From an uncultured bacterium (GTDB lineage: Bacteria > Acidobacteriota > Thermoanaerobaculia > Multivoradales > JAHZIX01): a stretch of DNA of 64,000 nt. Numbering within the stretch: the first letter of the stretch is position 1; every line of letters starts with the position of its first letter. Below are positions 30,857 through 47,963 of this stretch, piece by piece. A program made the position numbers and the translations under genes. Location: positions 1-64,000 of the forward strand of contig CBDUPA010000011.1 of assembly GCA_965368975.1 (NCBI GenBank), given 5' to 3'. The notes below the pieces were generated by a model. That model searched no databases. It was given only the letters and a program-made list of their open reading frames with translations, and had not been told where the DNA came from.

Positions 30857-30942
30857 TAGCTCGACAGGTACTGCGATAGGCTTGGCACCATCTGTTTGTC
30901 GTTTCGTTGATATAGCCTCGAAGTCCGAGGAGGAGATCTACC

Positions 30943-33078
30943 ATGTCGAACGTTGTTGCCCAACCTACTTTGGGGCGGGCCGAGATCGCCGCACGCTTGC
31001 GCGACATCGTCGGGCGCGTGCTGCGCATCGAGCCGGCCGCTCTCGAAGACGAAGCTCCGTTCCTATCGCTGGGAGCGGACTCGCTGGCCCTCGTCGAAGT
31101 CCTGCGAGCCTTGCACGAAGGCTTCGGTGTCACGCTGGCGGTGCGCCAGCTCTTCGAGGACTACCCGACTATCGGAGCCCTGGCGCAATACGTCGAGGCC
31201 AACATGCCCGACGAGCTGCCGGCCCCGCCGGCCGCCGCTGCGCCCCCTGCACCCGCGATGGCCCCCACGCCCGCTGCGCCGACGATGAGTGCGCCCGCGC
31301 CAGCACCTCTGCCAGCAGCTGCCCCGTCCGCGGCCGTCGAGTCGCCGCTCGCCGCCTTGGCCGCCGCGCCGGTCGCCCAGCCGTCTGCCACGGCGGCGGC
31401 TCCCGCGACAGCTGGAATGCCCGCCGGGCCCGTCAACCTCGGGGGCAGCCTGGCAGGTAGCTCCTTGGAGTTGGTGATGCAGGCGCAACTGGTTGCCTTC
31501 AACCATATGATTCTGCAGCAGATGAACTGGCTGCGTCCCGGGGCGCTCCCGGCCCTCGCTGCTCCTGTAGCTACGACTCCCGCCGCGCCGCCGGTTCAGG
31601 CAGCTGCGCAGCCAGCAGCTTCCCAGCCCGCGGCTGCACCCGCGACGAAGAAGGAGTTCAGGGCTGGTCTGAGCATGGTTACCGCCGCACCTCGGCAAGG
31701 TACCGCCGCGATACCCAAGCCGCCGACCGAGGAAGAGAAGCGCCGGCGCCAGGCGCACCTCGACGCACTGATCGAGGGCTACACGCGCAAGACGGCCAAG
31801 TCCAAGCAGCTGGCCGAGGCGTCGCGGCGCTACCTGGCGGACAGCCGTGCAATCGTCGGCTTCCGACCGGCGCTCAAGGAGATGCTCTACCCGCTGGCGC
31901 GCGAGCGCGCCGAGGGTTCGCGGCTGTGGGACATCGACGGCCACGAGTACATCGACATCACCATGGGCATGGGGGTGCACCTGCTCGGTCACAAACCCGA
32001 GTTCCTGCAGCCGGTGCTCGAGCAGCAGGTGGAGGCCGGCTTCGAGCTCGGCCCGCGCTCCGAGCTGGCCGGCGAGGTGGCCGAGTTGTTGTGCGGCCTC
32101 ACCGGTATGGAGCGCGCTGCCTTCACCAACTCCGGCACCGAAGCGGTGATGACCGCCTTGCGTCTGGCGCGCGCCGCCACCGGTCGCGAGAAAATCGCCC
32201 TCTTTGCCGGCTCCTACCACGGCCACTCGGACGGCACCCTCATCCGCAGCCAGCGGATCGACGGCCAGTTGCGCTCCTTCCCGGTGGCTCCGGGCGTCCC
32301 GGCCCACGTCGCTGAGGACGTCTTGGTACTCGACTACGGGGAGCCACAGGCCCTGGAGGATATCCGCCAGCACGCGGGCGAACTGGCGGCGGTGCTGGTC
32401 GAGCCGGTGCAGAGCCGGCGGCCGGACCTGCAACCGCGCGAGTTCCTGCAGCAACTGCGCGACCTGACGCGCGAGAACGGCATCGCCCTGATCTTCGACG
32501 AGATGATCACCGGCTTTCGCTATCACCTGGGCGGGGCCCAGGCGTGGTTCGGCATCGACGCCGACCTGGCCACCTACGGCAAGGTGATCGGCGGCGGTCT
32601 GCCGCTCGGCGCGGTCGCCGGCAAGGCCGACTTCATGGACGGTATCGACGGTGGCATGTGGCACTACGGCGACGACTCGGTGCCCGAGCGCGACACCACC
32701 TTTTTCGGCGGCACCTACTGCCAGCACCCCCTGGCCATGGCCAGCGGCCGCGCGACCTTGCTCTACCTGCGCGAGCAGGGGCCGCAGCTGCAAGCACGAC
32801 TCAACGAGCGCACCGGCCGCTTTGCCGCTGACCTCAACGAGTTCTTCCAGCAAGAGGGCTACCCGATCCACATCGCACAGTGCAGCTCGCTGTTCCGCTT
32901 CACCTACACGGCGGACGCTGAGTTGCTCTTCTACCACCTGGTGGAAAAGGGCATCTACGTCTGGGAGTGGCGCAACTGCTTCTTCTCGACCGCCCACACC
33001 AAGGAGGACTTCCAGCGCGTTGACGCGGCGATCCGTGAGAGCGTCGCCGAGCTGCGCAAGGCGGCGTACTTGCCCTAG
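30943..33078 (+). CDS. ACP plus class III aminotransferase didomain protein
   Basis: GADSL ACP, Ala/Pro linker, NSGTEAV, YHG, FDEMITGFR, TYGKVIGGG (PLP lysine); GGAGGAG RBS. Confidence 0.92.
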   Translation: MSNVVAQPTLGRAEIAARLRDIVGRVLRIEPAALEDEAPFLSLGADSLALVEVLRALHEGFGVTLAVRQLFEDYPTIGALAQYVEANMPDELPAPPAAAAPPAPAMAPTPAAPTMSAPAPAPLPAAAPSAAVESPLAALAAAPVAQPSATAAAPATAGMPAGPVNLGGSLAGSSLELVMQAQLVAFNHMILQQMNWLRPGALPALAAPVATTPAAPPVQAAAQPAASQPAAAPATKKEFRAGLSMVTAAPRQGTAAIPKPPTEEEKRRRQAHLDALIEGYTRKTAKSKQLAEASRRYLADSRAIVGFRPALKEMLYPLARERAEGSRLWDIDGHEYIDITMGMGVHLLGHKPEFLQPVLEQQVEAGFELGPRSELAGEVAELLCGLTGMERAAFTNSGTEAVMTALRLARAATGREKIALFAGSYHGHSDGTLIRSQRIDGQLRSFPVAPGVPAHVAEDVLVLDYGEPQALEDIRQHAGELAAVLVEPVQSRRPDLQPREFLQQLRDLTRENGIALIFDEMITGFRYHLGGAQAWFGIDADLATYGKVIGGGLPLGAVAGKADFMDGIDGGMWHYGDDSVPERDTTFFGGTYCQHPLAMASGRATLLYLREQGPQLQARLNERTGRFAADLNEFFQQEGYPIHIAQCSSLFRFTYTADAELLFYHLVEKGIYVWEWRNCFFSTAHTKEDFQRVDAAIRESVAELRKAAYLP

Positions 33079-33131: not shown

Positions 33132-35366
33132 ATGTCCCAGTGGTATAGCCTGCGCGGCCTCGCGATCGCCGTCGTTCTGCTCGTGACGATAAGCGCCGTC
33201 GGGCTCCGCGCTCAATCTGCGGAACCCAGCCGCGAATTTGGAGAGCCTCGGCCTCGGATCGCGTTGGCGCTTTCGGGCGGTGGCGCCCTGGGCATGGCTC
33301 ACGTCGGTGTTCTCTCGGTACTGGAAGAGCTGCGGATACCGCTGGACTGCATTGCCGGTACCAGCATGGGTGCCCTGGTCGGCGGACTGTATGCGACGGG
33401 CATCCCCGCGGCTGGTCTGGAAGGCCTGATCGGAGCCCAGGATTGGGCGGATATGTTCAGCGATCGCAGTGAGTATCGGGATCTGCCCTTCCGCCGCAAA
33501 GAAGACGAGAACCGGTACCTGGTAGATCTACAACTCGGCCTGAGTCGCGAAGGCGTGACCCTGCCCAGCGGTCTGATCACGGGCCAAGATCTGACCTTCC
33601 TGCTGCAGCGCTACAGCCTGCCGGTGGTCGAGGTGGACGACTTCTCACGCCTGCCGATCCCGTTTGTGGCCGTTGCCACCGACCTGGAAACCGGCGAAGC
33701 CGTGCTGTTGACCGGCGGTGATCTAGCAACCGCGGTGCGTGCCAGCATGTCGATCCCCGGTCTTCTCTCGCCGGTGGAATGGAAAGGTCGTCTGCTGGTG
33801 GATGGCGGCGTGGCCAACAATCTGCCGGTGCGAGAGGCGCGGCGACTGTGCGACGCCGACGTGGTGATCGCCGTCGACGTCACGCAACCACTGGCCGACC
33901 GCGAGCATCTGACCACGCAGATGGAGATCTCGTCCCAGACGCTCGCCTTCCTCACCCGGAGCGAGGTAGACCGCCAACTGCAGCACGCGGATATCGTGAT
34001 CGCTCCGCAGGTCGAAGCCTATGGCCTCTTCAGCTTTCCCGACGCGCCTGCGATTGTCGCCGCGGGCGTCGCAGCGGCGCAGGCACAGCTACCGGAGTTG
34101 GCCCAGCTGAGCCTGTCGGAACCGGACTTCGCCGCTCACCGCCTCGGGCAGCGCCGTCCGCCTCCTCCGCGTATCGTTCCGTCCTACATCCGTTTTGCAG
34201 GTAGTCGTCGCGTCGACGAACGCACCCTGCGAAGGCAGATCCGCAGTCGCGTCGCGGAGCCGCTGGACCTGGAGGTTTTGCGTGATGACCTGGGACGCCT
34301 CTACAACCTGAACGAATTCCAGCGCGTCACGTTCCGTGTGGAAGAAGATGCCGGCGAGGTGGGGTTGGTCTTCGAGCTGCAGGACAAGGAACTGGGTACC
34401 GCCTACTTGCAGTTTGGTGTCGCGATGTACAGTGACCTGCATGGAGAGACCGGCGTCACCGCGACGTTCAACGTCACGCGCACACGGGTGAACCGGTACG
34501 ACGCCGAGTGGCGCACGGATCTGCAAGTCGGCGACACCCACGGCCTGTTCAGCGAGTTGCACCAGCCTCTGGGCTACGGCAGCCCGTTCTTCGTCGCTCC
34601 CTGGGTCGAGGTTTCGCAGCAGCTAGTGCCGATCTTCGAGGGCGATCAGCGCATCGCCGAGTACGACCTGGAGCGCTACTTCACGGGCTTCGACGCCGGC
34701 CTGAGCCTGGGCCCGATCGGCGAAGTGCGGGGCGGCCTGGTGCGTGGCAGAGCCAAGGCCAAGGCGGCCACCGGCGCCGTCGATCTACCTGCCTTCGACG
34801 TCCAGGTCGGCGGCCTTCGGCTCGGGCTGAGCATCGACGACCTGGATCGTCCCACCTTCGCGGGGGAAGGCTGGGCGCTGTCGGGACGCTTTTTCAGCTC
34901 GCGCTCGGAGTTGGGCGCCGACGACGAGTACGAGACCCTGGAGGTCGCAGTTGCGAGCTTTGCCAGCAGGGGGGATCACACCCTCAGCCTGATCCTCGGT
35001 GGCGGCAGTGACTTCGACAGCGGCACGCCGTTCTACGACTGGTTCTCGGGCGGTGGCGCTGGCGACTTCGCCGGCTTCGCCCAGGGCCAGTTACTCGGTC
35101 GGGTCTATGCCAAGGCGAGGCTGCTCTACTACTACCGGCTGTTCTCTCTGTCTCCCACTTTCGGGCGCGGTGTCTACACGGGTCTGTTGCTGGACATCGG
35201 CGACTACTGGTCGGATCACGACGCCGTCGACTTCAACGACCTGCGTACCGGCACCGGTGTTTTCATCGGCGCCGATACCGTCATGGGGCCGTTGTTGCTG
35301 GGCTATGGCCGCACGAACAGCGGTGAGGACGAGTTCTACTTCACCATCGGTCAGCCGCTCGGCTGA
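33132..35366 (+). CDS. patatin-like phospholipase with POTRA and Omp85-type barrel (PlpD-like, type Vd)
   Basis: Signal peptide, GGGALG, GTSMG, DGG, POTRA region, beta-barrel ending FYFTIGQPLG. Confidence 0.88.
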   Translation: MSQWYSLRGLAIAVVLLVTISAVGLRAQSAEPSREFGEPRPRIALALSGGGALGMAHVGVLSVLEELRIPLDCIAGTSMGALVGGLYATGIPAAGLEGLIGAQDWADMFSDRSEYRDLPFRRKEDENRYLVDLQLGLSREGVTLPSGLITGQDLTFLLQRYSLPVVEVDDFSRLPIPFVAVATDLETGEAVLLTGGDLATAVRASMSIPGLLSPVEWKGRLLVDGGVANNLPVREARRLCDADVVIAVDVTQPLADREHLTTQMEISSQTLAFLTRSEVDRQLQHADIVIAPQVEAYGLFSFPDAPAIVAAGVAAAQAQLPELAQLSLSEPDFAAHRLGQRRPPPPRIVPSYIRFAGSRRVDERTLRRQIRSRVAEPLDLEVLRDDLGRLYNLNEFQRVTFRVEEDAGEVGLVFELQDKELGTAYLQFGVAMYSDLHGETGVTATFNVTRTRVNRYDAEWRTDLQVGDTHGLFSELHQPLGYGSPFFVAPWVEVSQQLVPIFEGDQRIAEYDLERYFTGFDAGLSLGPIGEVRGGLVRGRAKAKAATGAVDLPAFDVQVGGLRLGLSIDDLDRPTFAGEGWALSGRFFSSRSELGADDEYETLEVAVASFASRGDHTLSLILGGGSDFDSGTPFYDWFSGGGAGDFAGFAQGQLLGRVYAKARLLYYYRLFSLSPTFGRGVYTGLLLDIGDYWSDHDAVDFNDLRTGTGVFIGADTVMGPLLLGYGRTNSGEDEFYFTIGQPLG

Positions 35367-35373
35367 GCGAGAG

Positions 35374-36411
35374 TTACTTCTGGCGGTCCCCGTACCGCAT
35401 CTCGAAGCTGACCCCGAACTGCAACGACTCGCGCCGCACCTCGTCTGGATCGCGCGGCCAGGTCATGCCGGCGTAGCCTTCGACGAAAAACCACTCCCGC
35501 AACCAACGCTGGCGGTAAATTGCCCGCACCGTGTAGCGCCCCACGTTCACCGGCACATCCGTCTCGCCGCGGATCGAAGCCTGGTATGCCATCGCCCTTT
35601 CGCCGCCAAGGTTCTGGTAGAGCGTGAAGGCGGTCAACCAGTCGACACCGCGCGTCGATTCGGACCAGGTGCCATAGTTGGCCCAGCGCAGCAGCAGGTT
35701 CGGCGTCAAGACCTGCTCGACATCCGTGTTGTGCGTCAGGCCGTACCCTTTCTGGTTGCGCCAGAACAGCGTGTTGCGCATGCGCACCAGGCGATAGTCC
35801 GTGAGAAACCACTGCCGCCGCCCGCGTACGCGCACGAAGGGATCGAGCGGCAGATCCAGCTTCACGCCGGCATCCACGTCCAGCGTCCGATTCTTGCGCT
35901 TGGCCGGACTGTAGCCGAGACCCACCAGCCATTCCTCTTCGCGGCTCGCGTCGAAGAAGTCGGGCAGCTGCTCCAGCTCTTCGCGCCCACGGTTGGCGGC
36001 AAAGTCGTCCTCGTCGTCGCGATTGATGAACGCGCGCCATCGCTTCTCGGCCCGTGGTAGGTAGAGCTGCGCGTCGAGATCGATGTCCAGGTCGACGTTG
36101 TCGTCCTCGTCCCAGGCGACTCCGGCGGTCAAGCGGCCGTAGTTTTGCTCCAGCTCGGAGTCGTAGCGCTCGTCACCGAAGAAACCGTCGAACCAGCGGC
36201 CGGTACGGCAGGCGGAGCGGTGCAGGCCGGTGCGGAAGGTATCGAGCCACACGTCGCGGCTAGGTGGTTTTGCCGTGCACGGCTCCAGCTCGGCCTCTTC
36301 CGGGGCTGGCGCCTCTGGCGAAGGGGTGGGCTCCTCGCCGGGTTGATCGTTGGCGGCGAGGCAGAGCGGCAGGAGTAGGGCGCAGGTGAGTAGGAACGAT
36401 GCGCGGTCCAT
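35374..36411 (-). CDS. predicted outer-membrane beta-barrel protein of unknown function
   Basis: Signal peptide, WFDGFFGD motif, alternating beta strands, C-terminal FGVSFEMRYG. Confidence 0.65.
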   Translation of the reverse strand: MDRASFLLTCALLLPLCLAANDQPGEEPTPSPEAPAPEEAELEPCTAKPPSRDVWLDTFRTGLHRSACRTGRWFDGFFGDERYDSELEQNYGRLTAGVAWDEDDNVDLDIDLDAQLYLPRAEKRWRAFINRDDEDDFAANRGREELEQLPDFFDASREEEWLVGLGYSPAKRKNRTLDVDAGVKLDLPLDPFVRVRGRRQWFLTDYRLVRMRNTLFWRNQKGYGLTHNTDVEQVLTPNLLLRWANYGTWSESTRGVDWLTAFTLYQNLGGERAMAYQASIRGETDVPVNVGRYTVRAIYRQRWLREWFFVEGYAGMTWPRDPDEVRRESLQFGVSFEMRYGDRQK

Positions 36412-36463
36412 GAGCACAGCATAGCGTAGCAGGGGGGCCCGGCCTCCATCTCACGCCCCAGGA

Positions 36464-39400
36464 TCACGGAGCGTTCAGCCACCAGTAGTAGCTCACCGAG
36501 ATGCCGAACGAGTACTTGCTCTCCGGCCGGCCGATGGTACCTACGAACCTTGGAGTGTAGGCGCGCAGCCCATGACTGACGTGCGGTTCGGCCCCCCTGC
36601 ACGGAGGAGGAATACTTCGCTCCGGCCTGCCCGTACTCGGATCAGCACAGTAAGTGATCGTCGGTGACCAGGCCGCGGTGACTTGGGTTTCTGCCTGGGA
36701 GGAGCCTGACGCCGAGCTCCGCCCCTTCCGCCCATAGCCCTTTGGTCCAGGGGCAATGAGACGGTAGAAACCTCCGATTCCGCGTCTGCCAACCAAGGCG
36801 GCCGTCTTGTTGATGCCTGAGGTCAAAGCCTGGTTGATCTTCGTACCGAGCCAGCTAGGGCCGTTGAAGTTGACACCGAAGAAATAGCCAGAGTAGTCGT
36901 CGGGTGAAGGCGTGTCCCACACCAGGCCCAACGCTGTGCCGCCGGTCAGGTTGAAATTGCTGACCCCACTGTTCAGGGAAGACGAGAAATAGCCGTAGGT
37001 GGCAGTGCCAGCCCCGCCTCTGAACTTGAGACTCTCGACCCCGATACCGAGTCCCACCGCTCCCGCTCCGAAGCCGGTCTCCCCTGCGAAGCCCGAGTAG
37101 AATGCATCGAGCCGCTGATGCTCCTGGAAGGCCACGGTCAAACCAAACCCGGTGTGCAGCGCGGCAGAGAAGCTGCCGAAGCTCTTGGCGCTGGCTCTGA
37201 CCGCCAGCGCGACGTGAATGGTGCCCACGATCGCGAAGGCGACGGTGATCTTCTGGATCGTGGTGAGCCGACCGTCACGGTCGACTCGATTGATGGGGTC
37301 ACCGTAGGTATATACGTACCGGTTGAGCGATCGCGAGTCCTGCAGGTCGGCCTCCGCTCCGTCGGGTTGTGTGAAGCGTGCAATCTCCGGCGAGTACCAG
37401 CGGTGGTGTAGGAACACCAGGCCGGTGGCCGCGTCCCGATACGCACCGAGGAAGTCGAGGTCCGTGCCGAGCTCTCCGTCGCGCACGCCGAAGGCACCAG
37501 CAGGGGTGTCGTCGACGACCGCGCCCGTGCTCGCCAGAGCTTGGACCGTGCCCAGGTGATCGGCCATGAGAGTACGGGTACCCAACCCTGCTTCAAACAT
37601 TTGCAGAGGACCGTCGTCACCGTAGTCGTAGTGGCGCAGGAGAGCGCCAGCGGCGTCGCGCGTTTCGATCAGGCGTGGGAACTGGCTGCTGACGCGGTCC
37701 CAGACGAAGTCGACTCGAACACCGTCCTGCTCTCGGCTGAGCAACAGCCCGTCGATGGCGTAGCGATAGTCGACGACGGTCGGCGATGGGCCGGACCGTT
37801 CGAAGCGCGTCAGGCGTTTCTGGCTGTCGTAGATGAACGACTCGGTGGATGTGCCATCGCTCCGAGACGTCAGGCTGCCGTTGTCGTCCCAACCGTAGGT
37901 CCAAGTGCCATCCTGGAGCAGCCGGTCGTTGGCGTCGTAGGCGAGGGCGTGAGTACCGGAGGGAGCAGTGAGCGAGATCAGGTTGCCTCCGGCGTCGTAC
38001 GCGTAGCGCTTCACGCTCGTCGAACCGCCGTTGGATGTGGTTTCCTCCTGCAGCCGCCCCATGGCGTCGTAGACGTAGGAAACGGCTCGGCCCGGGGATT
38101 CTTGAAAGCCCGAAATCTGCCCGTTGGTGTCGTAGCTGTAGGTGATCCGGCGGATAGAGCTTCCCGAAGGCGACTGGTAGTCGAGACTGAGGACTCTGTC
38201 CGCGATGTCGTAACTGCGCAGGACGCTGCTGCTGTCGGGCATGTCCACTTGCAGAGGGCGGCCGCCGTCGTCGCGCGTCCAGGTCGTGGTGCCTTCTGGG
38301 CCGGTCTTCGATGCCAAGAAGCCACGCGCGTCGTAGAGGTAGGTCGTCGTGCCGCGCGGCGTGGTCATGGATGCCAAGCGTCCGGCGGCATCGAAGCCGT
38401 AACTGGTGACCGGTCCCCCGGCCGGCTCTCTCCAGCTGACCAACCGGCCCGCTGCGTCGTAGGTCATCTCGGTCGTGCCGTTGACGTCTGTCTTGGTGAG
38501 CAGGCGACCCATGTCGTCGAAGGTCGAGACTTCGGAACCGTCCGGGGCGCTGCGGGTGCTGGTGCGGTTGACGTCGTCGTAGTTCCATGTCGTCGTCGTG
38601 CCGTTGAAGTCGGTACAACTCGCCGGGCGCCCGTCACTGTCGTAGGTGCACTGCTCGGTTTGCCCCCCGGGCAGGGTGCGGCCGATCTCGCGTCCACGGG
38701 CGTCATGCAGGACGAGCGTAGTGTTGCCCCGCGGGTCGGTGACCCGGTCGAGGGAGCCGTCCGAGTCGTGGCTGTAGTGAGCGACGGAACCATCCGGTGC
38801 ATGGATCGTCGAGATTCTGCCCCCCGGCGAGTACTCGAGGCTCCATGGCAGACCGAAGAAGTCGGTGAAGGTCTCGAGTCGGCCGTTGGCGTCGTAGGTT
38901 CGGGATCGGGTAGCGCCGTCGGGGAAGGTGACGCGGGTCACCTGGCCGTTGCGGTCATGGTCGAAAGCGTAGGTGGTGCCGATGGGTCCTGTTGCCGAGG
39001 TGATCCGCCCTGCCGCGTCGTAGTTGGTCGTGATCCTGGCTCCGCCGGGCAGCTCGGTGGCGATGACACTGCCGTTGGCGTCGTAGGTGTAGGTCCGGGT
39101 ATTGCCGGCGCCGTTGCTCACCGATTGCAGCCGGCCGGCAGCGTCCCAGGTCTGGGACTTGGTCCCGCCTCCCAACACGGTGCTGGTGACCGAGCGGCCC
39201 AGTGCATCGTAGGCGCGGGTTACGATAAGTCCCTCCGGCAGGGTGGCCTCGAGGGCCCGGCCCTCGGCGTCATAATCGACCTGCGTGGCTGTTCGACCGG
39301 CGACGACGGCGCTCGCGGGCCGGCCCTGGGCGTCGCGTTGGAGGGACCACGCTCGCACCGGGTTGACCGCCCCGATCAGCTGGTTGTTGGCGTCGAAGGA

Positions 39401-42400
39401 CGTGGTGGCGATCTCGCCCAGCGGTGAGTCGAATTGCCGCAGATTGCCTTCCTCGTCGTAGTTGTAAGCCCAATCCACGGGCACCACACCGGCATCCGTG
39501 ACCAGTGTGCGGTGCTCGCCGATCAGCTGACCCCGGGCGTCGTTGTCGAGGGTGACGGTCACCCCTTCAGGGCCGGTCCAGGAGAGGGGGCGACCTTGGC
39601 CGTCGTAGGTGTAGGCGTCCACGGCGCCACTGGCATCGCGCATCTCGGTTACGTTTCCGGCCCCGTCGTAGCCCCACCGAGTGACGTTACCCTCGGGGTC
39701 GCGCGATGTCAGGCGATTGCCGCGCGAGTCGTAGGTGTTCACGATCTGCTCGCCCAGAGGGTTGGTGACCGTCAGCGGATTGCCGAGGTCGTCGTAGGTC
39801 GTCGAGCTCACCCTACCCATGGGGTCGGTGACCGTGAGTGGACGCCCCTGTGCATCGTAGGTCCAGCTGGTGACGTTGCCCAGCGGATCGGTGCGGGAGA
39901 GCTGATTGCCGAAGGTGTCGTACGACCGCAGCCACCGGTGGCCCAGTGCGTCGACGACGGCGGTGACATTGCCCAAGGCGTCGTACTCGAACACCGTGGT
40001 GTTCCCCAGCCGGTCCGTGACCTCCTCGCGCTGGCCCGCGATGTCGTGGGTGAAGACGACTTCCTTGCCATCCGCGTCCAACTGGCGGATCAACCGGCCG
40101 TCGGCGTCGTACTCGTTGCGCAGCGCGCGGTTGCCCAGGGGATCCTCGACGCGGAGCAAGTCATGCCGGGCTCCGTAGAAGAACCGCGTCGTATTGCCAC
40201 GGAAATCCGTCGCTGTGCTCAGGTCACCCACAGCCGAGTACGTGTAAGTGCGCTCGTTGCCCAGCGGGTCGGTCACCTTCACGATACGGTCCCGCGCGTC
40301 GCGCTCGAAGGCCACGCTGCTGCCGGAAGAATGGGTCAAGCCGCCGGCATCGAAGGCCAAGCTGTTGCCATTGCGATCCTCGATCAGGGTGACACCCGAC
40401 GGCCCGAACTCGATCCGCACATCGGTTTCCGTGGTGTAGCGGAACTGTTCCGGCACGAACAGCGAAAAGTCGCTGTCGTCGAGCAGCGATACGGCGCCCG
40501 GCTGCGCGTCCGCGATCCTCAGGAAGATACCGTCAGGTACCTCCAGGCGACCGCGGGTTCCCGGCAGGGGTTGGAAGCTGCCCGAGACGAAGGAGAACGG
40601 CACCAGTGGCGACACGGTCACGCTGGGCACGAAGTCGAACCTCTCGGCACGCTGTCCGGGAATCTGCACGGCACACCGATGCAGTCGAGTCGGCACCAGG
40701 CTGAAAGCGAGCCCGGATCGACCGACGAACCAGCCCTCGCCGAGGGGGTTGGTGCAGGTGAGCTCGACCGTCTGGAGTCCGAGGCGCCAACCAACGCCGA
40801 AGTCGCCTTGACGCTTGTCGCGGCTGTCGTAGGTGCGCGACACCGTGATCGGGATGCCAGAGAGCGGTACCTCGAGATCGGTGAAGTCCAGGGTGAAGTG
40901 GCCGATCTTCCGCTCACCGTCGACCTGGACGGTGACCTGGTCGATGGTCTGGTTGCCACCGGCGTCGAGAACGGTGAGCCGGAGTGCGTAGAGACCATTG
41001 AGCAGCAGCGTCGGATCGAGATCCCCCAGCTTGCCGCCGACGATCGGTGCCGTACCACCGCCGATGCCGGTGAACGTTTCCTCGCCCGCCGGCGAGATCG
41101 CCAGCTCGTAGCGCACCAGATTGGGATCGTTGGCCGTACCGAGAACCTCGATCGGACCGAAGACGCTTTCCCCATCCTGCGGCGAGGCGATCTCCACCGT
41201 CGGTGCGTCGTCGTCCGAGCCGTCGAAGTCGGTCACATTGACCATGGCTGTACCGACGACGGCATCCACGGTGGCCGTGATCTGCGCGGGTCCGGTGTTC
41301 GCAATGGCGATCAAGCGGCCACCGGGTGAGACTGTCGCCGTGGTGCTGTTGAGGCTCTGCCAGGTTGCAAGTGAGGTGGCTATCTGGCTGGTGCCATCGG
41401 CGAAGATGGCGTAGGCCTGGAGCTGAAAGGTCTCCCCGGCCAGCAAGTCGAGCATGTCGGGTCGAATGACGACCTGGGCGACCGGCTCGCTTCCGTCGAA
41501 ACCGTCACAGTCCTGGTCGATCCCGTCGCCCGCCGGATCAGGAGCACCGGGGAAGATGGTGTTGTCGCCGTCGTTGCAGTCGCCGCCGTTCTCGGTGAAG
41601 GTGTCGCCATCGTTGTCGACATCCTCCGGCGCGGGACCAAGAGAGATCACGAGATCGACCGCGTTGCCGAACTCGGTGACCGAACCACCGATCGGGGTCT
41701 GGGCGCTGACCGCACCCGCCGGAACCGTCGGGTGGAGGGTCTCCGACACCTTGCCCACCAGGAGATTCGCCGCCAGGATGTCCGCCTCGGCGGCCGCCTT
41801 CGGTAGGCCCACGACGTCGGGGGTGGTGACGGGATCACCGACTTCGAGATCCCACGACTGGTCGACGGCGAAACCAATGGTGTCGGTCGCCAGGAGGCTC
41901 ACCGGGAAGATGCCGTTGGTGTCCGGCAACCACCGCACCTCGCCGGTGACTGGATCGACGGTCATGCCGTCGGGTCCGGCGGTGAGGTGGAAGGTGACGG
42001 TGTCGCCGAGGTCCGGGTCGACCACGATCGGCGCGTAGGTGTACTGGAAACCGCGGGTGGTGAGCGCGTCCGGCTCGGTGAGGAAACGGGGCGGATTGCC
42101 GGCGGGCAGAATGTCGAGGGTCACGGTGGCGCCGCCCGAATCGAGCACGCCGTCGTTGGCGCGATAGGTGAACGTCTGCATCGTCCCGATCAGCGGATCC
42201 GGCTCCTGTTCGAGCAGGAAATAGCCGTTGCGGCCCGGCTGCAGCCAATGGGGCACGGGATTCGTCGGAATGGTCAGGTCCGGGTTGACCATCGCCTCGT
42301 TGAAGTTCCACTGGTTGCGATAAGGCGGCGCCGCCGGCAGCGGATTGGCCGCGCTTCCGGTCCAGACCCTCAGGTAGTCCGTTCCGAGCACGCTCCACGA

Positions 42401-45307
42401 GATGATGATCTCGGCATCCCCATCCTGGTCGACGTCGGCGACTGCGGTGAGATTGTGCTCGCCAGTCTTGCGGTTCGGTGCCTCGGCCATCGCCAGCACG
42501 CTTCCGTCGGTGCCATCGATGACGTACACCTGGCCGTCAGTAGCGGTGCTCGGAGTGTGACGGAAGACCAGGTCGTGTGCGCCGTCTCGGTTCGCGTCGA
42601 AGGCGATGGCGCCCTCGTCGTCCCGAAACAGGTTCGCCACGTCCAGGGACGCGTTGCCCTCGTGGCTCCAGAGCAGGGACGTACCGGCGGCTCCGATGTC
42701 GAGAACCTGGAGGAAGCAGCGGTTCTCACCGGCGTCACAGGGCATGTCGCTCATCTCGAGCTCTTCATCGCCATCGAAATCGGCGACGACGATCTGACTC
42801 TCGACGACGTTGGGAATCGCCTCCTGCCACTTGACCGTGCCGTCGTGCTCGAAGAGATAGCGGTTCCTTCGGTCGCGGCCCAGAAGCTCTGGAAAAGCAT
42901 CGTCGTCGAAGTTGGCCACGGCCAGGACGAGGTGACCTGCCGTCACCGTGCCGACGGAGACGGGTGTCGGCAGGCGAAACTCGACCTCTCCCGTCTGAGC
43001 TGGTCCACCGACCGGCCCCGGCATGCCGTCATGGTCGAGCACGGTGTTGTGGACGATCACCTCCATCGTGCCATCGAGGTCGAGATCGGCAACGGTGGCC
43101 ATCTTCTGGTCGTTACTGCCCCCCTGCCGGAAATCGGACATGTACTCCCACTGGATGGTGCCGTCCTCGGCGTTGTAGACGATGACGCCGGAGTAGACGT
43201 TGTGGTTGAAGCCCATGTCGATGCCGACGACGATCTCGACCGTTCCGTCGGCATCAATGTCCACGAGCTCGAGACCGGCGCTGTGCAGCTTGCCGCTGCC
43301 ACCGTTGGTGGTCGAGAGGTAGTGCGAGGTCCCCGTGACCCAGGCGAGGCTGCCGTCGTGGTGGACGGCGATCAGATGCTCGCCGTCGATACTGGCCGCT
43401 GGATCGTAGTTTCGAGCGCCGATCAGCTCGAGGTCGCCATCGCCGTCGATGTCCAGGAGAGCGACCTTGGACGAGGTGTACACTCCGCCGTGGCTCGCCA
43501 CCAGGCTGTAGTCCATGACCGGGTTCCCAACGGCGTCCCGCTCCTCGATGCAGGTATCGGCATCGACGATCCAGAACTCACCGTTGCAGGTGCATCCCGC
43601 CATGTGATCCACGCCGACGATCTCGAGGTCGCCGTCGCCGTCGACGTCACCCACCGCCAGCGTTCCCCGGGTCGAGAAGCCGCGTTCAGGGGTAGACGGT
43701 CCGGTCTGGCACAGCAGCTCGAGCTCGACCGGCGTCGTCCGATCCGGAGGCTCGAGCAGGAACTCGAACGAGCCATCGGCGGCAAGGGAGAGATCGCCCT
43801 GGGCCACGTCGGTAGCGAGCACCGCGGTCAAGGCGTCTCCGTTCGGGTCCGAGTCGTTGGTCAGCACGCCCGGCGCGGCGACCTGGAGCCTGTCGCCAAG
43901 ACGCGCCTCGAAGACATCGTTCCGAGCCTGCGGCGCGACGTTGATCTCCAGCACCTCGACCGCGAAGTGGGTGAAGTCGAGGTGGCCGTCGGCATCGTCC
44001 ACTTGTACGGTGACATCGTGCATGCCGACCTGGTGAGTGCCGGGCGTCCAGGAGACCGCGCCGCTCGCCGGGTCGATCGTCATGCCTGGCGGCGACAAGG
44101 GCAGGGAGAACGTCAGCGTGTCGTTGGGCAGGTCGGGGTCGGTGGCGGTTGTGTTGAGATTCAGGGTCGCGAGTTCGACGACCTGCCGCCCGGCGATGGC
44201 ATCCAGGGTGGGAGGCCCGCCTAGATCCCGCACGTCGACCGTGAAGGTTCGCTCGTCGCTTGCGCCCGCCCGGTCGGTGACCCGGACCCGGAAGGTGTGA
44301 GCACCGATCTGGGCACTGCTGGGCACCCAAAGGAGTGAACCATTCGCCAGATCGATACTGGCGCCGGCCGGACGCTCCACCAAGCTCCAGCTGAGCGTGT
44401 CAGCGGGCAGGTCGAGATCGTTGGCTGCAGCCACCAGCGCGACGATCTCGCGCTCGCGTACCTGCAGGTCGGCTAGCGGCTCCAACACCGGCGCGCTGTT
44501 GGGCGCGGTCTGCGCGATGCAGATCGTGTCGCGAACGTCGACCAGCGTGTCACCGTTGCAGTCTGGATCACCCGGCGCGACACCGCGCTCCAGAATCTGG
44601 TCGACGATGACCGCAATGTCGGCGGCATTGACGGATCCGTCACCGTTGGCGTCACCGGGTTGGACGGCAGCGTACGCCAGGGGTGCGAGAGCAAGACCGA
44701 GCCCGAGCACGACGAGGGCCACGGTGCCGCGACGCAGCCTGTGCAGCGCGAATCCGAGCAGCACGCAGATCAACAATACAAGGCTCCAACCCCCGAGCGT
44801 CGGGATCTCCAGGGGGGACTGGGCCAGCGCAACCACCACCTGGCCGTCTACGACTTCGGTAGGCGACACTGCCAGCGCGGATGTGGACGCGACCAGCAAC
44901 GACTCCACCATCACCGGCCAGGTACCGACCGGGGCGTCGGCGGCGATCTGGAAGGGAACGACGATCAAGCCGCCATCGGCCAGAGCGGAGGGCGTGCCGG
45001 TCACCACGGTGACGCGGAGGCGGCCTGGACTGATCTCGGTCCAGTCCAGGCTGTGGTCTACGAGGGCGCTGCCGGCGGTAGGTGTCCCCGCGTCAAGAAC
45101 CGCATCGTCCCAGGTCAGATCGAACTGCACCGCCGCGCCATCTGCGCCCGACGTCCAGTCGAAGGCGACCAACACATCGCTTCCCGGGGCACCCTCGGCG
45201 GAGAGCCCGATCAGGTTCGGCTGCGCCACCGCCGCTGGCGTCACCAGGATGCCGAGTAGCAAGAGTACGAAGGGAGCGGAAGAGAGTCTCCGTGCAACAT
45301 CAGACAT
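36464..45307 (-). CDS. giant RHS/YD-repeat protein: SP-cohesin-IPTL-CTERM-second SP-dockerin-Ig repeats-FG-GAP propeller-PASTA-MopE-like repeat-Ig-RHS core-C-terminal cargo
   Basis: VQFDLTWD cohesin; IPTLGGW-TM-HRLRR; GDANGDGSVNAAD/DCNGDTLVDVRD dockerin; He_PIG-type Ig (PPGMTIDPASG); PDVVGL PASTA; DCND...DGIDQDCDG; many YD repeats; core end RWYSPEIARFTQPD...NRYVY...DPINRVDRDG. Confidence 0.92.
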   Translation of the reverse strand: MSDVARRLSSAPFVLLLLGILVTPAAVAQPNLIGLSAEGAPGSDVLVAFDWTSGADGAAVQFDLTWDDAVLDAGTPTAGSALVDHSLDWTEISPGRLRVTVVTGTPSALADGGLIVVPFQIAADAPVGTWPVMVESLLVASTSALAVSPTEVVDGQVVVALAQSPLEIPTLGGWSLVLLICVLLGFALHRLRRGTVALVVLGLGLALAPLAYAAVQPGDANGDGSVNAADIAVIVDQILERGVAPGDPDCNGDTLVDVRDTICIAQTAPNSAPVLEPLADLQVREREIVALVAAANDLDLPADTLSWSLVERPAGASIDLANGSLLWVPSSAQIGAHTFRVRVTDRAGASDERTFTVDVRDLGGPPTLDAIAGRQVVELATLNLNTTATDPDLPNDTLTFSLPLSPPGMTIDPASGAVSWTPGTHQVGMHDVTVQVDDADGHLDFTHFAVEVLEINVAPQARNDVFEARLGDRLQVAAPGVLTNDSDPNGDALTAVLATDVAQGDLSLAADGSFEFLLEPPDRTTPVELELLCQTGPSTPERGFSTRGTLAVGDVDGDGDLEIVGVDHMAGCTCNGEFWIVDADTCIEERDAVGNPVMDYSLVASHGGVYTSSKVALLDIDGDGDLELIGARNYDPAASIDGEHLIAVHHDGSLAWVTGTSHYLSTTNGGSGKLHSAGLELVDIDADGTVEIVVGIDMGFNHNVYSGVIVYNAEDGTIQWEYMSDFRQGGSNDQKMATVADLDLDGTMEVIVHNTVLDHDGMPGPVGGPAQTGEVEFRLPTPVSVGTVTAGHLVLAVANFDDDAFPELLGRDRRNRYLFEHDGTVKWQEAIPNVVESQIVVADFDGDEELEMSDMPCDAGENRCFLQVLDIGAAGTSLLWSHEGNASLDVANLFRDDEGAIAFDANRDGAHDLVFRHTPSTATDGQVYVIDGTDGSVLAMAEAPNRKTGEHNLTAVADVDQDGDAEIIISWSVLGTDYLRVWTGSAANPLPAAPPYRNQWNFNEAMVNPDLTIPTNPVPHWLQPGRNGYFLLEQEPDPLIGTMQTFTYRANDGVLDSGGATVTLDILPAGNPPRFLTEPDALTTRGFQYTYAPIVVDPDLGDTVTFHLTAGPDGMTVDPVTGEVRWLPDTNGIFPVSLLATDTIGFAVDQSWDLEVGDPVTTPDVVGLPKAAAEADILAANLLVGKVSETLHPTVPAGAVSAQTPIGGSVTEFGNAVDLVISLGPAPEDVDNDGDTFTENGGDCNDGDNTIFPGAPDPAGDGIDQDCDGFDGSEPVAQVVIRPDMLDLLAGETFQLQAYAIFADGTSQIATSLATWQSLNSTTATVSPGGRLIAIANTGPAQITATVDAVVGTAMVNVTDFDGSDDDAPTVEIASPQDGESVFGPIEVLGTANDPNLVRYELAISPAGEETFTGIGGGTAPIVGGKLGDLDPTLLLNGLYALRLTVLDAGGNQTIDQVTVQVDGERKIGHFTLDFTDLEVPLSGIPITVSRTYDSRDKRQGDFGVGWRLGLQTVELTCTNPLGEGWFVGRSGLAFSLVPTRLHRCAVQIPGQRAERFDFVPSVTVSPLVPFSFVSGSFQPLPGTRGRLEVPDGIFLRIADAQPGAVSLLDDSDFSLFVPEQFRYTTETDVRIEFGPSGVTLIEDRNGNSLAFDAGGLTHSSGSSVAFERDARDRIVKVTDPLGNERTYTYSAVGDLSTATDFRGNTTRFFYGARHDLLRVEDPLGNRALRNEYDADGRLIRQLDADGKEVVFTHDIAGQREEVTDRLGNTTVFEYDALGNVTAVVDALGHRWLRSYDTFGNQLSRTDPLGNVTSWTYDAQGRPLTVTDPMGRVSSTTYDDLGNPLTVTNPLGEQIVNTYDSRGNRLTSRDPEGNVTRWGYDGAGNVTEMRDASGAVDAYTYDGQGRPLSWTGPEGVTVTLDNDARGQLIGEHRTLVTDAGVVPVDWAYNYDEEGNLRQFDSPLGEIATTSFDANNQLIGAVNPVRAWSLQRDAQGRPASAVVAGRTATQVDYDAEGRALEATLPEGLIVTRAYDALGRSVTSTVLGGGTKSQTWDAAGRLQSVSNGAGNTRTYTYDANGSVIATELPGGARITTNYDAAGRITSATGPIGTTYAFDHDRNGQVTRVTFPDGATRSRTYDANGRLETFTDFFGLPWSLEYSPGGRISTIHAPDGSVAHYSHDSDGSLDRVTDPRGNTTLVLHDARGREIGRTLPGGQTEQCTYDSDGRPASCTDFNGTTTTWNYDDVNRTSTRSAPDGSEVSTFDDMGRLLTKTDVNGTTEMTYDAAGRLVSWREPAGGPVTSYGFDAAGRLASMTTPRGTTTYLYDARGFLASKTGPEGTTTWTRDDGGRPLQVDMPDSSSVLRSYDIADRVLSLDYQSPSGSSIRRITYSYDTNGQISGFQESPGRAVSYVYDAMGRLQEETTSNGGSTSVKRYAYDAGGNLISLTAPSGTHALAYDANDRLLQDGTWTYGWDDNGSLTSRSDGTSTESFIYDSQKRLTRFERSGPSPTVVDYRYAIDGLLLSREQDGVRVDFVWDRVSSQFPRLIETRDAAGALLRHYDYGDDGPLQMFEAGLGTRTLMADHLGTVQALASTGAVVDDTPAGAFGVRDGELGTDLDFLGAYRDAATGLVFLHHRWYSPEIARFTQPDGAEADLQDSRSLNRYVYTYGDPINRVDRDGRLTTIQKITVAFAIVGTIHVALAVRASAKSFGSFSAALHTGFGLTVAFQEHQRLDAFYSGFAGETGFGAGAVGLGIGVESLKFRGGAGTATYGYFSSSLNSGVSNFNLTGGTALGLVWDTPSPDDYSGYFFGVNFNGPSWLGTKINQALTSGINKTAALVGRRGIGGFYRLIAPGPKGYGRKGRSSASGSSQAETQVTAAWSPTITYCADPSTGRPERSIPPPCRGAEPHVSHGLRAYTPRFVGTIGRPESKYSFGISVSYYWWLNAP

Positions 45308-45494
45308 GAATCGAATCCCTCGTGCGAATGAGCTTTGTGCGGTGTCGCGTGTGTGGTGTCGTCGTCTGGGTTGAGGCTGTGAACCAAGCCCCTCATCTCC
45401 TTCTGCGTAGAATCGCGAAACAGAGGACAGACTTTCGTGGGAAATGCTTTGGTCCGTGTCAGACTTGGATGATCACCCCCGGAGGGAGCTTCCC

Positions 45495-47963
45495 TTGACG
45501 TCACCCGAGCAGTCCCGAAACGCCCTGGAATGGTTTGAACGCCTGGTCGAGGCGCGGACGGAGGAGCGCTCTCGCCAGCTGGTCGAGCTGCAGCGCGAAG
45601 ATCCGGACCTCGCGACCGCGGTGTCTGCTCTGCTTGCGGCCGATAGCGAGCCGGGCCTCGATGCTCCTTTCGAGCCGGCCAACGGCCTTCCAGGGGTTCT
45701 CGGTCCGAGCGCCGGAGATCGGTTGGGCCCCTACGAATTGACCCACCTTCTCGGTGAGGGCGGCATGGGGACCGTGTGGGAGGCACGGCGTGTCGAGGGC
45801 GGCTTCGAGCAGCGTGTCGCCGTCAAGTTCCTGCGCTACGTGGTAGCCGACTCGAGAGGAGAACGGCGCTTCCGCTTCGAGTGTGAGGTACTCGGAAGGC
45901 TCCAGCACCCCACGATTGCCCACATCCTCGATACCGGTCAGACGGCGGCGGGAATCCCCTACCTGGTCATGGAGCACGTCGAGGGGCTCCGTATCGACGA
46001 GTACTGCGATCAGCGGATCCTGTCGATCCGGGAGCGTGTCCGGCTCGTGGTCAAGATCTGCGCCGCCGTTGCCCACGCGCACCGCAACCTGGTGGTTCAT
46101 CGGGATCTCAAGCCCGCGAACATCCTGGTCACGGACGAGGGAGAGCCCCGACTCCTCGACTTTGGCATTGCCAAGTTGTTGGACAGCGACCGAGAGCAGG
46201 CCGCCCTGACGGTCGAGGGCCCGGGACCCATGACGCTGGAGTACGCCAGCCCGGAGCAGGTCCAGGGAATGCCGGTGACGACCGCAAGCGATGTCTACTC
46301 CTTGGGGGCCTTGCTGTATCAGCTGCTCACCGGACAGACACCGTTCGGCAACTCGGCGAACTCACCCCTGGACCTTGGACGCTCGGTCGTCGAACAGGAC
46401 GCATCTCCTCCCAGCTCAGTACTGACGCGCAGCGCCTCCCGAGACGCAGCCGATGTGCAAGCTACTCTCGAAGCCCGTGGCGCTGCGACGTCGGAGCAGC
46501 TGCGCCGCGAACTCCGCGGCGACCTCGACAACATCGCGCTCAGGGCCTTACAGCGCGAGCCGGAGCGCCGGTACCCGAGCGTCGATGCGTTTGCAGCGGA
46601 TATCCAGAACTGGTTGACCGGGTTTCCGGTCGAGGCGCGAGGGGATTCGCTGGCTTACCGCGGCGCCAAGTTCGTCCGCCGCAATTGGCTCATCTTGACG
46701 GCGGCGACTCTCGTGTTCGCGGCCCTGGCGATTGGAATGGGCGTCGCCACGTGGAAGGCCAATGAAGCCCGCAAGCAGCGCTTCCGGGCCGACGATCACG
46801 CTCAACGCACCGAGATGGTCAACGCCTTCCTGGTGGATCTATTTGCCGCCCCCGGTGGACGTTGGTGGCGAGATCTGGAGCACAGAGGACCGGAGACCCG
46901 CGTCATCGACGTGATCGACGAGGCAGCGGCTCGACTCGAGCACGAGTTGGACGGAGCACCCCTCCAGCGGGCAACCCTGCACCAGACCCTGAACGACACG
47001 TATCTCGCACTCGGGCTGCCGGACCGCGCGGAGCATCAGGTACGGCGAGCTCTGGAGATTCGACAGCGTGAACTCGGAGAGATCGCCCCGGCCGTCGCGG
47101 AGTCGACGTACTACCTGGCCGCGACGCTCAAGAGCCAGGAGCGCTACGACGAAGCACTAGAGATCTACCGGGCCGCCCTCGAGATCGAGCAGCGCTTGCC
47201 CACGCCGAGCAGGAATCTCCCCTACGCTCTGAGTGAAGCAGCCACAACCGCTGCCCGGGTCGGCCTCCATTCCGAGTTCGAGATCTTGGTCCGGGAGGCC
47301 CTGCTCCGGGTGGAAGAGTCCGAACCGCACCTCGAGGGGTACCTTCTTTCTTTGCGCGCTTGGCACCGTGCGGAACGCGGCGAGTCGAGACTTGCCGAGC
47401 AAGATTTGGTAGAAGCTCGGAGGTGGTTCGAATCAGCCAGCCCGGAGGCCGAGTCTCTGCGTAGCAATGCGCGGATTAGCTGGGCTACCGTTGCCTGGCT
47501 TGGAGATGATCCTCAAGAAGCGTTGGAGATGACGGCCGAGCCATCCTCCGGCCGCAGCTCTCGTTTGCGAGTTCAGGTTCTCTTCGACTTGGGGCGCTTC
47601 GAGGAGTCCCGGCACTGGCTCGAGGGTTTGGAGAACACTGCTGCCCAGTTCCTCGAAGGTCAGGTCCTCAGTGGTCGACTGGCCTTGGTTCTCGACGGAG
47701 ATTCGGAGCTGTGCATAGCTCGAGTCGAGCCGGCGCTGGAAGCGGAAGAGCGCTGGTCAAGAGGGCCTACTTGGTACCTGGCCGAGGCACGCTCCGCCAT
47801 GGCAGCCTGTCTACAGGCTCGGGGGCTGCCCGGAGATCGGGGCAGAGCCAATGAACTGGCGGAGTCGGCGCGAGCGATGCTCAACGTCCTGTTCGAACAG
47901 GGAACGCCTTTGCATCGGCGGATAATCCTAGAAGCGACGAATCGTTTAGAGCCAGGCTCATGA
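45495..47963 (+). CDS. membrane Ser/Thr protein kinase with C-terminal TPRs
   Basis: GEGGMG, VAVK, HRDLKPAN, DFG, YASPEQ; TM segment then TPRs. TTG 45495 after GGAGG preferred to 45444. Confidence 0.92.
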   Translation: MTSPEQSRNALEWFERLVEARTEERSRQLVELQREDPDLATAVSALLAADSEPGLDAPFEPANGLPGVLGPSAGDRLGPYELTHLLGEGGMGTVWEARRVEGGFEQRVAVKFLRYVVADSRGERRFRFECEVLGRLQHPTIAHILDTGQTAAGIPYLVMEHVEGLRIDEYCDQRILSIRERVRLVVKICAAVAHAHRNLVVHRDLKPANILVTDEGEPRLLDFGIAKLLDSDREQAALTVEGPGPMTLEYASPEQVQGMPVTTASDVYSLGALLYQLLTGQTPFGNSANSPLDLGRSVVEQDASPPSSVLTRSASRDAADVQATLEARGAATSEQLRRELRGDLDNIALRALQREPERRYPSVDAFAADIQNWLTGFPVEARGDSLAYRGAKFVRRNWLILTAATLVFAALAIGMGVATWKANEARKQRFRADDHAQRTEMVNAFLVDLFAAPGGRWWRDLEHRGPETRVIDVIDEAAARLEHELDGAPLQRATLHQTLNDTYLALGLPDRAEHQVRRALEIRQRELGEIAPAVAESTYYLAATLKSQERYDEALEIYRAALEIEQRLPTPSRNLPYALSEAATTAARVGLHSEFEILVREALLRVEESEPHLEGYLLSLRAWHRAERGESRLAEQDLVEARRWFESASPEAESLRSNARISWATVAWLGDDPQEALEMTAEPSSGRSSRLRVQVLFDLGRFEESRHWLEGLENTAAQFLEGQVLSGRLALVLDGDSELCIARVEPALEAEERWSRGPTWYLAEARSAMAACLQARGLPGDRGRANELAESARAMLNVLFEQGTPLHRRIILEATNRLEPGS

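Follow-up and report, generated by a model that had tools for sequence, protein, structure and literature searches.

The window analysed here comprises 64,000 nucleotides of an uncultured, soil-type member of the Acidobacteriota (contig CBDUPA010000011.1, assembly GCA_965368975.1) and carries on its reverse strand a very large RHS gene, 36464..45307, whose 2947 codons form a single uninterrupted frame. An earlier sequence-only reading of the stretch 44513-45307, which encodes residues 1-265, had proposed that this gene specifies a polyprotein, i.e. a surface-anchored cohesin and a separately exported, dockerin-tipped RHS cage. The one-frame order on which that proposal was built is confirmed by translation and by Pfam and NCBIfam hidden Markov models. 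A signal peptide is followed by a cohesin, an internal IPTL-CTERM sorting signal, a basic loop, a second signal-peptide-like helix, a dockerin, Ig/FG-GAP modules, the RHS cage and a C-terminal domain. The positions of these features are collected in Table 1.

Table 1. Features encoded by the RHS precursor gene (positions refer to the window; residues to the 2947-residue product)
Feature	Position	Strand	Basis
First signal peptide, residues 1-28 (MSDVARRLSSAPFVLLLLGILVTPAAVA|Q)	45224..45307	-	By eye from translation
Cohesin, residues 37-159	44831..45199	-	Pfam PF00963
Internal IPTL-CTERM-type sorting signal, residues 168-193 (IPTL, 17-residue helix, HRLRR)	44729..44806	-	TIGR04174
Second signal-peptide-like segment, residues 194-213 (GTVALVVLGLGLALAPLAYA, predicted cut AYA|A)	44669..44728	-	Alignment to unfused relatives
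Dockerin, residues 217-263, two Ca-binding loops	44519..44659	-	PF00404
Ig-like / cadherin-like modules, residues ~270-516	43760..44500	-	Pfam He_PIG 85.4, Big_9 56.1, Cadherin_5 45.2, Cadherin_4 45.8 bits
FG-GAP-like repeats, residues ~550-1010 (limits by eye)	42278..43660	-	Pfam FG-GAP_3 53.3 bits, 3 stretches, best residues 683-752
He_PIG, PASTA, MopE-like, Big_2 and Big_7 modules, residues ~1075-1400	41108..42085	-	Pfam
RHS/YD-repeat cage, DUF6531 (residue 1469) to Rhs-associated core (residues 2606-2679)	37271..40903	-	Pfam and NCBIfam
C-terminal polymorphic (toxin) domain, residues 2680-2947, 268 residues, Gly-rich, with hydrophobic stretches	36467..37270	-	

The fusion of the two halves is real, old and conserved, as judged from its distribution among homologs. 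A word-index search with residues 1-270 among proteins of 1620-5158 residues returned 14 matches, namely the query itself, a dockerin-only protein (P0014) and 12 others (P0002-P0013) of 2065-3477 residues, with 41-62% identity across 63-100% of the query segment. Precomputed Pfam lists contain a cohesin family for 11 of these 12 proteins and RHS repeats likewise for 11; P0013 is a gene call short at its N-terminus, and P0005 stops early. A further gene, from genome G009, is 40% identical and has no stop within its 1723-residue frame. Alignment of the query, P0002-P0013 and the G009 gene revealed the same junction in all 14 sequences: [IV]Pxx, a 16-22-residue helix, a basic loop (1-13 residues), a second, uncharged stretch (16-33 residues) and, a few positions further on, (P)GDAN. 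Homologs with a stop codon directly behind HRLRR had been named in advance as an observation that would speak against the proposal; instead, relatives at 40-62% identity read through the junction.

On a larger scale, 1.84 billion 50%-identity cluster representatives were searched exhaustively with phmmer, which gave 628 matches at E ≤ 0.001. Among the 150 matches listed, 25 run unbroken from residue 40 or earlier to residue 260 or later, and 14 of the 25 are at least 2800 residues long. Of 300 genomes belonging to the same order, 44 contain a match at E ≤ 1e-6 and five the fused form: the genome under study, G009, G362, G235, where the cohesin is divided between two adjacent frames, and G002, where the fused form is more divergent. 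The same order of modules, for which the sequence-only reading had suggested a search, thus occurs in the 12 further long proteins and in five genomes, the one under study included. A profile scan of genome contigs yielded at least 65 loci, largely generic dockerins. Five of them were inspected, and the entire arrangement was present in one alone (L063, labelled as an uncultured Thermoanaerobaculia metagenome-assembled genome); a locus from the Dehalococcoidia (L064) encodes a small cohesin-Ig-dockerin protein that lacks the hairpin of two hydrophobic segments.

The N-terminal module is a cohesin by both sequence score and beta-sandwich fold. PF00963 is matched at 30.6 bits (gathering score 24.1), and the same family matches eight of eight aligned relatives with a best E-value of 9.7e-15. 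A profile of the family N-termini retrieved solved cohesins from the PDB (6kg8_A, E 1.6e-15). An AlphaFold2 model of residues 1-270 gave a block-mean predicted local distance difference test score (pLDDT) of 70-93, mostly ~90, for residues 40-140, and the Foldseek matches listed from the PDB are cohesins without exception (5nrm_A, E 5e-9, target TM-score 0.75; 0.75-0.78 over the top matches), 2zf9 (ScaE, Ruminococcus flavefaciens) being among them. Helices were also predicted within the first signal peptide (residues 3-8 and 11-21). The mean pLDDT of this single-chain model is 64.8 with the dockerin poorly resolved, so that it is not informative on a cohesin-dockerin contact in cis.

The two-loop dockerin claimed behind the second signal is likewise present. 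Both Ca-binding loops are canonical, with 12 residues each and D or N at positions 1, 3, 5, 9 and 12 (D219/N221/D223/N227/D230 and D249/N251/D253/D257/D260), and the majority of these columns do not vary among the 14 sequences. A helix follows each loop in the AlphaFold2 model (residues 228-242 and 258-261), so the pattern of a type I dockerin, two such loops each with its helix, is complete. The cysteines C250 and C263 are invariant in the family. Dockerin_1 reaches 26.1 bits when in-frame neighbours are included and matches 7/8 aligned relatives (best 2e-6); the family profile matches solved dockerins weakly, at E 5e-4 to 4e-3.

The signal between the two modules was identified as IPTL-CTERM by a six-frame search of the genome, in which TIGR04174 scored 24.2 bits against a cut-off of 20.5. 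Its pattern of motif, hydrophobic helix and basic cluster is kept in 14/14 relatives, as is [IV]Pxx, with P169 invariant. A plain membrane anchor should have no need of a conserved [IV]Pxx. The location is atypical in that the signal is not C-terminal. Seven IPTL-CTERM matches above cut-off were found in the genome, five of them at 0-8 residues from the C-terminus; the two internal ones belong to the RHS gene and to a gene on contig C31 (see below). The presence of a suitable exosortase, which the sequence-only reading had left to a genome search, was confirmed: xrtH lies at C3:413893-414552 (-) and scores 114.8 bits with TIGR04177 (cut-off 86). XrtH is the exosortase type that NCBIfam links to IPTL-CTERM and is the sole exosortase-family match in this 7.1 Mb, 99% complete genome. 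It is found above cut-off in 32/41 relatives and in each of the six genomes with a fused gene. The gene adjoining xrtH is divergent (C3:414609-418151) and encodes a secreted protein of 1180 residues in which Lamin Tail Domains are combined with four phospholipase D-like stretches (PLDc_2, 254 bits).

The second hydrophobic stretch is present as originally quoted, HRLRR-GTVALVVLGLGLALAPLAYA|AVQPGD, with the AYA|A cut site assigned by eye. Comparison with unfused dockerin-RHS genes was used to characterise it. The tblastn matches of these genes begin at query residues 190-192, inside the second hydrophobic stretch, and therefore their N-terminal signal peptides align with it. A (-3,-1) site lies exactly four residues ahead of the dockerin “GD” in 12/14 fused sequences, at three residues in the remaining two, and again at four residues in 6/6 unfused dockerin-RHS proteins; the rule is permissive, and as the sequences are kin the counts do not represent independent events. 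In this comparison the stretch behaves like a signal peptide whose predicted cut is in register with that of the unfused ones. The AlphaFold2 model contains two helices at the junction, residues 173-193 and 197-207. The second signal peptide proposed for the junction is thus upheld with regard to alignment and (-3,-1) register, while the cleavage itself is inferred.

Both halves of the precursor also occur as separate proteins. Among 11 proteins fetched from the exhaustive search, three stand-alone cohesin proteins of 191-209 residues (P0069, P0079 and P0098) carry a cohesin between a signal peptide and a C-terminal IPTL-type signal, and end no more than about a dozen residues past its helix; P0067 and P0154 have a terminal helix and basic tail in which the motif is not clear. 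A word-index search of shorter proteins gave a single 690-residue fragment and no stand-alone cohesins. The unfused dockerin-RHS proteins, ~1613-1660 residues in length, are encoded by separate genes and begin with an ordinary signal peptide, which is followed by the same dockerin and by RHS repeats. In eight genomes both modules were found on one contig (G036, G003, G475, G462, G244, G025, G019 and a fragmentary case, G420). The dockerin gene lies upstream of the cohesin-bearing gene on the same strand in all eight, at a distance of 0.06-7.3 kb; in G402 the modules are on two contigs. Since the cohesin precedes the dockerin in the fused gene but follows it in the split clusters, the fused gene cannot have arisen by the loss of one stop codon. 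Taken together, the occurrences form a Rosetta-stone pattern, in which the two module types of this precursor are kept together, fused or split.

A common gene order was noted in two of the split clusters (G036, contig C51, 3924-12997; G003, contig C21, 3463-15343). The dockerin-RHS gene is followed by genes for a small protein with signal peptide, YD repeat, TIG and TSP3, for a Gly-rich protein of ~430 residues that belongs to no family, and for the cohesin protein, which has a C-terminal part of ~350 residues and the terminus FADGFESGDTSAW. The small and the Gly-rich genes are duplicated in G003.

The cohesin (residues 29-166) and the dockerin (residues 213-272) were co-folded as separate chains with two Ca and a 14-row alignment per chain. 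The resulting score was 0.81, as compared to 0.01 for the best of three controls. The pass mark is one reached by 58/80 solved complexes and 2/110 mismatched pairs, counts that are only rough here since the run relied on an alignment of our own and included a small molecule. The runs were in 100% contact agreement with a partner pLDDT of at least 85. In the predicted interface, one face of the cohesin beta-sheet (residues 58-61, 88-92, 98-106 and 138-146) packs against both dockerin helices (residues 228-241 and 257-266). The check for which the sequence-only reading had called is therefore passed, and the model suggests that the pair is binding-competent.

The genome holds a small, non-cellulosomal set of cohesins and dockerins. 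A TPR-secretin of 887 residues (C4:97825-100485; Secretin, 141 bits) ends in a cohesin-like domain (Cohesin, 27.9 bits). This secretin is matched in 41/41 relatives; the match extends through the cohesin-like tail (residue 856 or beyond) in about two dozen of them. The tail could be an outer-membrane docking site for dockerin proteins. A lipoprotein-like cohesin protein (25.5 bits) is encoded at C1:232500-233033. The dockerins are represented by a GDSL lipase that carries one at its C-terminus (37.2 bits; C3:91124-92332) and by a large protease-like protein in whose N-terminal part a dockerin-like stretch scores 17.8 bits, below cut-off (C1:382562-385021). With regard to the claim of 1:1 cognate pairing, the joint encoding of cohesin and dockerin, fused or split, is in its favour; exclusivity did not stand, given three modules of either type in the genome.

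On the basis of these data we consider it probable that the protein is a “midcut” precursor, in which a membrane hairpin is cut twice and the products pair at a 1:1 ratio. The first signal peptide would carry the cohesin across the inner membrane, where the IPTL-CTERM helix would act as stop-transfer with the basic cluster staying cytoplasmic. The same cluster would serve as n-region of the next hydrophobic stretch and restart translocation of the following ~2730 residues, the two helices forming the hairpin. XrtH is then expected to cleave at the IPTL motif and to hand the cohesin to a surface acceptor, and signal peptidase I to cleave after AYA, releasing a free dockerin-tipped RHS toxin. 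As both ends would leave one hairpin side by side, pairing of cohesin and dockerin could be immediate, and the RHS cage would be held non-covalently on the anchored cohesin. Anchoring of the cohesin and binding in the cell are, like the other steps, deduced from topology rules and family knowledge. The host is apparently diderm because a secretin and an Omp85-domain protein are encoded.

A number of observations weigh against this mechanism. On the single protein, IPTL_CTERM scores 19.8 bits, slightly below its cut-off of 20.5, and just 5/8 aligned members match it at E ≤ 0.1. Dockerin_1 on the protein (residues 217-260) gives 20.4-21.0 bits, where the gathering score is 22.9. Several relatives have a single Lys or Arg in the loop, and the cohesin proteins of the split systems are without IPTL-CTERM. 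The co-fold pass may stem from likeness to the many solved cohesin-dockerin complexes, and with three cohesin-like and three dockerin-like modules in the genome the actual partners could differ. Furthermore, both cuts are derived from topology rules and family knowledge, and the passage of both products through the outer membrane is likewise a presumed step.

In the main alternative explanation the precursor stays in one piece, or is cut by XrtH only, and persists as a permanent hairpin in the inner membrane that keeps the cohesin and the dockerin-RHS part in the periplasm, the cohesin-dockerin contact being an intramolecular clasp or unused. Two helices with a short basic loop have the look of any bitopic-to-polytopic anchor, and those of the AlphaFold2 model would fit an uncleaved hairpin; in some relatives the second segment, with up to 33 uncharged residues, is long enough for a stable helix. 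A permanent hairpin is considered unlikely, since it conflicts with the retention of [IV]Pxx and its invariant Pro, with a (-3,-1) site that is preceded by Pro or polar residues and kept in the register of unfused N-terminal signal peptides, and with the stand-alone cohesins, which stop right behind the sorting signal. Less probable still is a precursor that is split but whose modules serve other partners, so that the anchored cohesin recruits the GDSL esterase or the protease-like dockerin protein and the RHS dockerin uses another cohesin, i.e. the lipoprotein or the secretin tail. The three-plus-three modules of the genome would allow it (secretin 27.9, lipoprotein-like 25.5 and GDSL lipase 37.2 bits), and close cousins of a true partner can likewise pass a co-fold test. 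Still, the cohesin and dockerin types are fused in five and clustered in eight of the 300 genomes; moreover, the secretin is matched in 41/41 genomes as compared to 15/41 for residues 1-270, its tail being present regardless of a dockerin-RHS gene.

Two further explanations concern the reading frame itself. The dockerin-RHS chain could be made from an internal start codon, the long frame representing two overlapping products. In-frame GTG codons are available at 182, 196 and 200; however, none is preceded by a Shine-Dalgarno-like run, whereas GAGGGA stands 8 nt ahead of the annotated ATG. With initiation at 196 the signal peptide would also lack a charged n-region, and the conservation of an open frame over the junction, down to 40% identity, speaks for read-through translation. 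We therefore regard internal initiation as highly improbable. An assembly artefact, a sequencing error or a recent chance fusion of neighbouring genes was rejected, as homologs carry the same junction in one frame. The recurrence of the junction in independent assemblies at 40-60% identity makes an artefact very unlikely, and these assemblies are from several sources (41-62% identity for the long proteins); the same genome carries a second gene, on contig C31, with the same internal signal and second signal peptide, and the split gene order is opposite to the fused one.

The “midcut” arrangement is not limited to cohesins. An internal IPTL-type signal with an immediate second signal-peptide-like stretch recurs in the order with at least three other N-terminal domains; 12 of the loci inspected were chosen for stop-free matches spanning the junction and are examples rather than a census. 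A divergent cohesin-like domain precedes a dockerin in G002 and on contig C18 of G003. A domain with “LDLDDD..TGC” stands in front of one with “DGDPSDW..LFLRxDV” and of cadherin-like repeats on contig C31 of the genome itself and in G035, G033, G347, G450, G259, G421 and G011; Pfam was run on two proteins of this type. An N-terminal domain with “FPVQLVLDDD..WMIRGFG” was found in G345 and G404. The C31 gene (1-1635, reverse strand) runs off the contig end and encodes an internal IPTL-CTERM at residues 188-214, a second signal-like stretch and cadherin-like repeats, and relatives of its type are present in at least seven other genomes. The combination of internal IPTL-CTERM and second signal peptide looks like a general design. 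We tentatively propose, at slightly short of an even chance, that the exosortase H substrates of the order include many precursors that split themselves into “anchor plus cargo”. An N-terminal anchor domain, an internal IPTL-CTERM, a second signal peptide and a cargo would form a single chain, to be cut in the membrane and rejoined outside via a built-in pair, and cohesin-dockerin-RHS would be the only case in which this pair is recognisable. At least three other N-terminal domain types may hide new, unnamed docking pairs. If so, diderm bacteria would possess a modular display system comparable to sortase-anchored cellulosome scaffolds.

Little is known of the role of exosortases in bacteria and of the targets to which their substrates are attached. 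A substrate with a partner of its own would offer a handle on this biology, as the cohesin fragment could be tracked, the dockerin used for pull-down and the C-terminal modification mapped. If the mechanism holds, cohesin-dockerin pairing would extend to toxin display, and RHS toxins would gain a route to the surface of a diderm without a type VI system. Encoding anchor and cargo as a single chain would ensure the right partners at 1:1 among several cohesins and dockerins, a principle that might be reused for engineered surface display. Other “midcut” families may contain new protein-protein docking modules.

The remainder of the protein agrees with an RHS/YD-repeat toxin, i.e. YD repeats and an Rhs-associated core ahead of a variable C-terminal domain. 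RHS_repeat reaches 375.4 bits over 20 stretches and DUF6531 31.1 bits in Pfam, YD_repeat_2x 315.6 bits and Rhs_assc_core 56.6 bits (cut-off 32.5) in NCBIfam. In front of the cage, PASTA (residues 1160-1222) and Big_2 (residues 1276-1355) score 31.2 and 29.7 bits, and Cu-binding_MopE (residues 1243-1270) 26.8 bits against a gathering score of 27. The C-terminal domain gave zero Pfam matches at E ≤ 0.01 and a best Atlas score of 0.82, which is at lead level only; the same tail is found in relatives P0009 and P0010.

Directly downstream of the RHS gene, 35374-36417 (-) encodes a 347-residue protein that has a signal peptide but gave no match in Pfam. An immunity role was considered for it and is not assignable, in view of the missing family match; it may equally be an outer-membrane protein or unrelated. 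Further along, a polyketide-type gene pair occupies 26279-33078 (+). The first product, of 1525 residues, has the order acyl carrier protein (ACP), ketosynthase, acyltransferase, acyltransferase (ketoacyl-synt 312 bits; Acyl_transf_1 369 bits in two stretches), and the second is an ACP-class III aminotransferase protein of 711 residues. The gene at 33132-35366 (+) specifies a 744-residue protein with a patatin-like phospholipase (111.9 bits) and a C-terminal Omp85-superfamily domain (36.1 bits). The divergent neighbour on the other side of the RHS gene, 45444-47963 (+), encodes a Ser/Thr protein kinase of 839 residues with TPR repeats (Pkinase, 144 bits).

In relation to known systems, a close description is the NCBIfam family NF033207, “midcut-by-XrtH protein”, which shares the placement of an XrtH-type signal in mid-protein. 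It matches residues 142-210, the signal and the following hydrophobic stretch, with positions 9-83 of its 175, and 7/8 aligned relatives match as well (best E 1.8e-6). The score of 19.9 bits is below the curated cut-off of 45, and no match above it was found in the genome itself or in any of 201 genomes of the phylum. The flanking cohesin, dockerin and RHS parts lie outside the model, the comparison being one of family name and profile only. The statement that nothing of this kind had been described is therefore overstated, as NF033207 shows that curators had already noticed mid-protein XrtH signals. A literature search returned nothing on such signals; earlier exosortase descriptions may exist. 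For the combination of exosortase, dockerin and cohesin it gave only unrelated work on anaerobic methanotrophic (ANME) archaea.

Conventional IPTL-CTERM/exosortase H sorting (TIGR04174, PF18203, TIGR04177) is matched in motif, hydrophobic helix, basic cluster and presence of XrtH, and differs in that the signal is internal here with 2754 in-frame residues after it. In the diderm Methylomirabilis lanthanidiphila the S-layer is formed by a protein with an IPTL-CTERM (PMC8671808), a point in favour of the proposed mechanism. Cellulosomal anchoring is similar with respect to the cohesin fold, the two-loop dockerin and a predicted interface between a sheet face and both dockerin helices, and also in the proposed principle of an anchored cohesin that holds a dockerin-bearing protein. 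ScaE of R. flavefaciens, for example, is a sortase-anchored scaffoldin cohesin. In contrast to cellulosomes, glycoside hydrolases are not involved, the bacterium is apparently diderm, an exosortase rather than a sortase is proposed, and anchor and cargo are parts of one precursor.

Sec-exported RHS/WapA-type toxins and teneurin-like YD shells share the signal-peptide-led RHS cage, the Rhs-associated core and the variable C-terminal domain, whereas the N-terminus is here a dockerin preceded by a cohesin-exosortase module. An N-terminus of the PAAR or type VI secretion type was absent from the Pfam and NCBIfam tables of the 2947-residue protein. Cohesin and dockerin are listed among the domains of PT-TG polymorphic toxins, in the available part of that work without the present design (PMC13483458). 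The components are thus known, namely “midcut” processing by XrtH as an idea, cohesin-dockerin pairs outside cellulosomes and RHS toxins exported via Sec, and the protein described here is a variant that combines them.

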